Of a stretch of DNA of 3,480 nucleotides, positions 1,596 through 2,357 are shown in pieces. Under the pieces are notes generated by a model, which made no database searches, was not told the origin of the DNA, and worked only from the letters and a program-made list of their open reading frames with translations. Within the stretch, counting starts at the first letter, position 1; the number at the start of each line of letters is the position of its first letter. A program made the translations under genes and the position numbers. Source of the DNA: Escherichia coli (GTDB lineage Bacteria > Pseudomonadota > Gammaproteobacteria > Enterobacterales > Enterobacteriaceae); NCBI RefSeq assembly GCF_003334255.1, contig NZ_QOWU01000120.1; one strand, given 5' to 3'.

Positions 1596-1783
1596 GAGAC
1601 GCAGAGGGGAAGTTGCGTCCATTTTACCGGGAACGGAGCAAAAAACCGCCATTCATACCCTGTATCAATCAGTGTCATCCTGTTTAATCGTCGTTTCCGC
1701 TCATATGGTGCACAAGGGGTGTTGAAGAAACATCCGTTTTGTGGTGCTTTTTTAGTCTTTTGGGGATTTAAATTCCTATCGAT
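422..1783 (+). mobile_element. IS91-family (HUH rolling-circle) insertion sequence, 5' end truncated by the IS3-family element; right (ori-side) boundary approximate
   Basis: Contains an IS91-type transposase gene. The right boundary is inferred from the change to AT-rich mcbF-like coding sequence and from CAAG tetranucleotides at 1713-1716 and 1784-1787, the IS91-family target. The exact end is uncertain between about 1712 and 1787. Confidence 0.6.
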
Positions 1784-2357
1784 CAAGGGCGGAGTAAGTA
1801 ATTATGAGGGGACCCTCAAGCGTAATTTCTCTGGTGGAGAATTAGTAAGTCTACCTCAAGTCATAAATCTTTCAGGTACACTAAGGAATGAGGAGGTTCT
1901 TGATTTGATTTGTTGCTTCAATAAGTTAACTAAAAAACAGGCATGGGCAGAGCTTAATCATAAATGGAATGATAATTTTTTTATTCGCTATGATAAAATA
2001 AGTCGTAAAAGGACTTACACGGTAAGTTATGGGGAGAAGCGTTGGCTTATCATATCTTTGATGCTAACGCTTTGCAAAAATGCCCGTTTATTTTTACTGG
2101 ATGAACCAACTGTAGGCATTGATATTCAGTACAGAATGATGTTATGGGAACTGATAAATAAGATCACCGCAGACGGGAAAACGGTATTTTTCTCAACTCA
2201 TATTTTTGATGAACTAACAAGAGATAAAATCCCCTTCTATATGCTTTCAAAAAATGGTATAAATCGTTATTCTGATATGAGTGATTTTATTCAATCTAAT
2301 AATGAAACAACTCCAGAAAAGGCATTTGTTAAAGAAGTTATGGGAACAGGGGACTGA
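1719..2357 (+). pseudogene. mcbF: 5'-truncated ABC transporter ATP-binding protein, McbF-like (microcin B17 export/immunity ATPase); Walker A absent
   Basis: The ORF has a Q-loop-like VSLPQ, a degenerate signature SYGEKRW, Walker B LFLLDEP and an H-loop STHIF, but no GxxGxGK[ST] and no in-frame ATG before about codon 114. It is AT-rich and ends 4 bp before the pentapeptide-repeat gene, matching the mcbF-mcbG arrangement. Homology probably starts near 1785-1790; the first roughly 20 codons may be junction sequence. Confidence 0.6.
2347..2352 (+). promoter_or_regulatory. Shine-Dalgarno-like AGGGGA for the mcbG-like gene
   Basis: AGGGGA lies 8 nt upstream of ATG 2361. The upstream ORF stop (TGA 2355-2357) is 3 nt before the ATG, an arrangement compatible with translational coupling. 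Confidence 0.5.

Follow-up and report, generated by a model that had tools for sequence, protein, structure and literature searches.

The locus raises the question of what an open reading frame (ORF) annotated as an "AAA family ATPase" represents when its ABC domain shows no Walker A motif and an unusual signature, and whether such an ORF still has any role beside mcbG, the gene located downstream of it. The window, which is the whole stretch of DNA analysed (3480 bases), is a patchwork of insertion sequences which surrounds two mcb genes (Table 1). The ORF is very likely a 5'-truncated mcbF pseudogene, interrupted by an IS91-family element and derived from the gene encoding the ATP-binding subunit of the McbEF exporter, which lies beside a retained and intact mcbG.

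Table 1. Features of the window, with their positions and strands and the basis on which they were assigned.
Feature	Position	Strand	Basis or remark
IS3-family element, part (5' part of the transposase gene)	1-421	-	PGAP annotation of an identical plasmid; IS91 homology resumes at 422 in copies without the insertion
IS91-family element, right-hand part	422-1783	+	NCBIfam IS91 transposase match; terminus common to five copies
Chimeric ORF, 212 aa, "AAA family ATPase" WP_225374590.1 (PGAP)	1719-2357	+	
mcbF 3' 576 nt (codons 53-243 and stop)	1782-2357	+	Alignment to the DNA of the intact operon; by megablast, intact operons match from 1782
CAAG target tetranucleotide, abutting the IS91 right end, inside mcbF codons 53-54	1784-1787	+	
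Q-loop LPQ (Q78 of intact McbF)	1851-1859	+	Q kept in at least 90% of 50 aligned sequences
C-loop/signature VSYGEKRW	2022-2045	+	Opposite ABCA4 SGGMQR/SGGNKR; S and G invariant
Walker B LFLLDE, then D-loop GID	2088-2105	+	D, E and P invariant in the alignment
H-loop STH	2193-2201	+	H invariant in the alignment
Intact mcbG, 187 aa, pentapeptide-repeat immunity protein against microcin B17	2361-2924	+	Identity to McbG of the intact operon; function from the literature (PMC6722960)
IS66-family transposase C-terminal fragment, right boundary of the mcbG module	2926-3183	+	PGAP "transposase domain-containing protein, missing N-terminus"; NCBIfam IS66 E 3.8e-6, below cutoff
IS629 fragment	3265-3480	-	

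Distribution of the window

Several complete E. coli plasmids match the window at 99.9-100%: NZ_CP060062 and NZ_CP060058 match it from base 78 on, the first of them with 100% identity over 78-3480, NZ_CP075654, NZ_CP116070 and NZ_CP145705 match it from base 422, and pECOED, of the E. coli strain ED1a, shows a 99.9% match over window 1600-2930. The whole arrangement was found in a small fraction of the complete E. coli genomes (5/5,426). The IS3-family insertion falls precisely between orf121 and tnpA of the IS91 element and is missing from sister plasmids such as NZ_CP075654, and bases 1-77 of the window are unmatched in otherwise identical G6/7 plasmids. The mcbG module shows IS debris on both sides, with the IS66-family fragment directly 3' and then the IS629 fragment (window 2926-3480).

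Domain and motif content of the chimeric ORF

The ORF starts with GTG and ends with a TGA at 2355-2357. Pfam recognizes in it only the C-terminal part of ABC_tran (PF00005), together with AAA_21; model positions 53-136 of 137 are covered (E 3.2e-7) and the PF00005 domain is thus incomplete. The NCBIfam ABC models are all far under their cutoffs, e.g. 46 bits versus 312. Motifs were placed by aligning the ORF with NBD1 and NBD2 of ABCA4, which are solved ABC domains, and with 48 homologues. The Q-loop, C-loop, Walker B and H-loop of PF00005 are present in the ORF and in this order. A Q-loop at GTLRNEE, suggested by the phmmer alignment with ABCA4, was rejected, since the 50-sequence alignment shows that the conserved glutamine is Q78 of LPQ.

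A regular-expression scan for Walker A ([AG]xxxxGK[ST]) in the six frames of the whole window gave zero matches, and the DNA upstream, where an in-frame Walker A could have been expected, belongs to IS91. The alignments and the scan thus confirmed the observation of the earlier note that the Q-loop, Walker B and H-loop are kept and that Walker A is missing. An ABC ATPase without a P-loop cannot hydrolyse ATP, and the remnant, which has none, therefore cannot be a working ABC ATPase. The proposal that the loss of the P-loop disables the protein is in this way supported by general knowledge of ABC ATPases, and the McbE permease is also absent from NZ_CP060062.

The C-loop of McbF-like proteins

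The signature had been described as SYGEKRW instead of LSGGQ, with doubt about whether it was native to the McbF family or a sign of decay. The description is correct, and the doubt resolves to a family trait. SYGEKRW is kept in 35 of the 37 full-length McbF-like proteins, down to approximately 29% identity, and the remaining two show SFGEKRW; Walker A is intact in all 37. The carriers include Salmonella, Serratia, Erwinia, Hahella, Pseudomonas and Achromobacter. When the nearest intact McbF (approximately 98.4-99% identical to the remnant) was aligned, it also showed SYGEKRW and not LSGGQ. Loops of the SGGM/STGM type are found in more distant ABC-2-type ATPases of this alignment, in which the serine and the second glycine of LSGGQ never vary. 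Because SYGEKRW is family-wide in homologues which contain Walker A, it is native, that is, the normal C-loop of the McbF family and not a sign of decay. Decay of the C-loop from LSGGQ is ruled out by this conservation.

Identity of the mcbF remnant

Protein and DNA comparison with the intact operon of pSCU-111-2 (locus L001) shows that residues 22-212 of the ORF correspond to McbF residues 53-243, and that codons 1-21, including the GTG start, are IS91 end sequence. The remnant shows 98.4% identity to the intact 243-aa McbF (McbF residues 53-242) and, with this high identity, which is not due to chance, and its SYGEKRW C-loop, belongs to McbF. On other plasmids, the match of intact mcbABCDEFG operons to the window does not begin before base 1782. 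The Walker A of intact McbF is GENGAGKTT, at residues 40-48, and the breakpoint lies four codons after it.

The corrected length of McbF is 243 aa (PMC10912980), and McbEF is an ABC-2-type exporter (PMC6722960). The remnant shares with McbF of the McbEF exporter (E. coli pMccB17) the Q-loop, SYGEKRW, Walker B, D-loop, H-loop and the 3-nt gap to mcbG. However, it is not a full-length McbF preceded immediately by mcbE: residues 1-52, which include Walker A, are missing, 21 IS91-derived codons are found instead, with IS91 upstream, and the plasmid contains neither mcbE nor mcbA-D. The MccB17 export/immunity function of McbF is predicted to be lost in the remnant.

The remnant contains zero stops or frameshifts, and its private changes are approximately one non-synonymous (I235V) and one synonymous. 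Such little further decay would fit a recent event, and neither supports nor excludes constraint. With so few differences, the substitution counts speak neither for nor against relaxed selection. The nearest intact McbF, at 5845-6576 of L001, shows R71, H131 and Y243, in contrast to G, Y and D, respectively, in the truncated copy and in the wider family. The three residues of the pSCU-111-2 protein are therefore derived states, and the remnant is nearer to the family consensus at the three positions.

The IS91 element and its junction with mcbF

The element upstream of the remnant shows the features of the IS91 family: an HUH/rolling-circle transposase match (NF033538, 231 bits versus a cutoff of 125), the right terminus and the target tetranucleotide; its transposase gene contains a frameshift. 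Over window 1600-1781, the identity to the right ends of other IS91 copies is 97-100% for four which lie in unrelated contexts, and 76% for a fifth, divergent one. The right (ori) terminus reads ...TTCCTATCGAT; up to ...CGAT the sequence is common to five IS91 copies, which differ beyond this point; the terminus ...CCTATCGAT is common to all compared copies, with the target tetranucleotide next to it. The tetranucleotides which flank the right ends are CAAG in the window and CGAG, CAAG, GAAC and GGAC in the other copies. The published IS91/IS801 targets are GAAC, GGAC, CAAG and CGAC, and the right end of the IS91 family is the origin of rolling-circle transposition (PMC3189936); the observed tetranucleotides fit these targets, and the CAAG of the window is a canonical one. 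Since the AT at 1782-1783 is common to the IS91 terminus and mcbF, the junction is ambiguous by 2 nt.

Like IS91-family insertions at CAAG/GAAC, the window element has a conserved right terminus which abuts CAAG and a transposase which matches the family model. In contrast to them, the window copy is defective: it has the IS3-family element at its 5' end, and its tnpA pseudogene (497-1595) shows an 11-bp deletion at 1331 (GATAAGGGGTT) with respect to the intact IS91 tnpA of locus L007. Furthermore, a simple IS91 insertion would leave the 5' part of mcbF at the left flank. This part is missing beside the window element, and a further deletion or recombination must therefore have taken place. 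The C-terminal piece of tnpA (1335-1595) is in frame with the mcbF remnant ORF, with one TGA between them.

The right end of IS91 contains two hairpins, at 1717-1735 and approximately 1761-1779 (fold z-score -2.15). The GTG at 1719 sits in the stem of a terminal hairpin, which a T-run follows, and this codon looks a poor start for the chimeric ORF. The 5' end of this ORF is a by-product of the open frame leaving IS91, because the same IS91-internal GTG starts an unrelated fusion ORF in L007 (2809-3312), which PGAP annotates as a "hypothetical protein". Gene calls of this kind, which read out of IS91 into the adjoining sequence, may represent a systematic artefact of annotation.

The rest of the mcb operon

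A search of the entire NZ_CP060062 plasmid (99.8 kb) with the intact operon, by blastn and tblastn, did not find mcbA-E or the 5' end of mcbF, and the mcb content of this plasmid is McbF 53-242 and McbG only. The reciprocal product, with mcbA-E and the mcbF 5' end at the IS91 left end, was looked for in PLSDB, and no 5'-only partial was found among the matches listed, which are a spread sample. In NZ_CP060062, the usual flanks of the mcb operon, containing yacAB, a 3'-5' exonuclease fragment and an acyltransferase, adjoin each other approximately 18 kb from the mcbG module (L010, 27912-29385), with approximately 280 bp at the operon site. The adjoining flanks hint at a history of excision or recombination involving IS91.

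Independent truncations of mcbF

Two further independent mcbF truncations were found in IncK2/Z plasmids, and mcbG is intact in both. The first one (L005 3935-4297), present in NZ_CP033633 and approximately 14 similar IncK2/Z plasmids of chicken E. coli, shows mcbF cut at codon ~92 and adjoins the left end of an IS91-like element in opposite orientation. Its remnant contains a 135-bp internal deletion and a D-to-V change in Walker B; its end is frameshifted, and a premature stop lies 28 nt upstream of mcbG. In the second one (L006 4001-4147; NZ_CP127318), the terminal repeat of an IS1 adjoins codon 197 of mcbF and 147 nt of mcbF are left before mcbG. Since mcbG is intact beside these broken remnants, it can be retained without an intact remnant ORF. 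In PLSDB, the mcbE-mcbF region is intact in 107 plasmids, and only a 3' mcbF stump with mcbG is present in 22 (22/129, approximately 17%). N-terminally truncated McbF-like proteins of 161-171 aa (P0016, P0021 and P0023), annotated as "AAA family ATPase" or "protein McbF", are also found in Salmonella enterica and other genomes, and mcbF truncation therefore recurs beyond E. coli.

mcbG and the alternative explanations

The window encodes an intact pentapeptide-repeat McbG, which is 99.5% identical, over its full length, to McbG of the intact operon and shows weak similarity to the Qnr family. McbG alone confers partial MccB17 resistance (PMC6722960). The mcbG ATG is at 2361, leaving a gap of 3 nt after the remnant stop, and the same 3-nt gap is found in the intact operon L001, where mcbF ends at 6576 and mcbG starts at 6580.

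This arrangement bears on the main alternative, in which the remnant would have been kept for mcbG expression, either via translational coupling over the 3-nt gap or via a promoter in the last ~150 nt of mcbF. Besides the short distance between stop and start, the remnant frame is still open, and all three independent truncation types keep at least 147 nt of the mcbF 3' end before mcbG. However, the spacing is that of the native operon, and mcbG is intact both where the frame is broken (L005) and where only the 147 nt are present (L006). In addition, mcbG has its own purine-rich stretch, AGGGGA, 7-12 nt upstream of its ATG; its initiation region shows no RNA structure sequestering the ribosome-binding site (z -0.22), contrary to coupling; a scan of 1400-3200 for sigma-70-like promoters on the + strand gave none at threshold; and the GTG is buried in a hairpin. 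On this evidence, retention of the remnant for mcbG expression is unlikely. The earlier note had proposed coupling through the closely spaced stop and start: the 3-nt spacing is real, but it is not a special feature, since it is native to the operon and mcbG persists with broken remnants. A structural or translational role of the remnant, also put forward there, is possible yet unsupported. A candidate extended -10 (TGgTATAAA) was read by eye near 2260 and is not conserved in the classical allele.

It is similarly improbable that IS91-ΔmcbF-mcbG is a mobile "orphan immunity" cassette in which the 3' part of mcbF, or its translation from the IS91 GTG, drives mcbG. If it were so, non-producers would gain transferable microcin B17 resistance and possibly low-level quinolone protection.

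Annotation of the ORF as a complete "AAA family ATPase" CDS on 295 contigs might suggest a naturally degenerate, P-loop-less ABC-like protein, belonging to a distinct family with a structural or regulatory role. However, the ORF shares 98.4% identity with a normal McbF over residues 53-242 and its N-terminus is IS91 DNA, Walker A is present in every full-length homologue found, and the shorter homologues are varied truncations or contig-end partials, which effectively refutes a distinct family and leaves it hardly any probability. Equally negligible is the reading of the absent Walker A as an error of sequencing or assembly, or of SYGEKRW as a decayed LSGGQ. It is refuted by an IS91/mcbF junction identical in six independently sequenced complete plasmids and found in the five complete E. 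coli genomes, by the exact chimeric protein on the 295 contigs, and by SYGEKRW in intact operons and distant homologues.

Proposed origin of the locus

The reading as an IS91-truncated mcbF pseudogene would imply the following order of events. An IS91-family element would have inserted with its right (ori) end beside CAAG in mcbF codons 53-54, and the upstream mcbA-E and mcbF codons 1-52, which contain the A-loop region and Walker A, would then have been lost from the plasmid lineage. A chance open frame from the IS91 terminus provides a GTG and 21 foreign codons, which leads gene callers to report a 212-aa "AAA family ATPase". The remnant is devoid of the P-loop, of the beta-strands with which the RecA-like core begins and of the McbE partner; it cannot act as an ABC ATPase and, if translated at all, would probably be unstable. 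It is most likely a non-functional pseudogene which has been mis-named. The retained functional unit would be mcbG with its native ribosome-binding region, giving (partial) microcin B17 immunity without production.

Relation to described strains and significance

A 2024 survey (Microb Genom) reported two MccB17-resistant E. coli whose only mcb genes are mcbG and an "orthologue of mcbF", with a transposase at the flank and the biosynthesis genes absent (PMC10926693). These strains show the same gene content as the window, with mcbG and an mcbF-like ORF only, and a transposase flank, and their module is associated with MccB17 resistance; they differ in that the ORF is called an "orthologue" and no junction is given. 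The module is very probably of the same kind as the IS91-truncated mcbF and mcbG of the window. An IS91-truncated mcbF stump beside an orphan mcbG is thus ordinary, already sequenced and essentially already described.

For annotation, the value of the finding is that the "AAA family ATPase" CDS, whose exact 212-aa sequence is carried by the 295 public contigs and in which PGAP sets no pseudogene flag, corresponds to an IS91::mcbF fusion pseudogene. For the family, the analysis settles SYGEKRW as the ordinary C-loop of McbF-type exporters. For the plasmids, the 22 of 129 mcb-bearing ones in PLSDB which contain a stump, originated by at least three independent IS events, are consistent with selection for immunity without production, a possibility already raised in the literature, which would act on mcbG.
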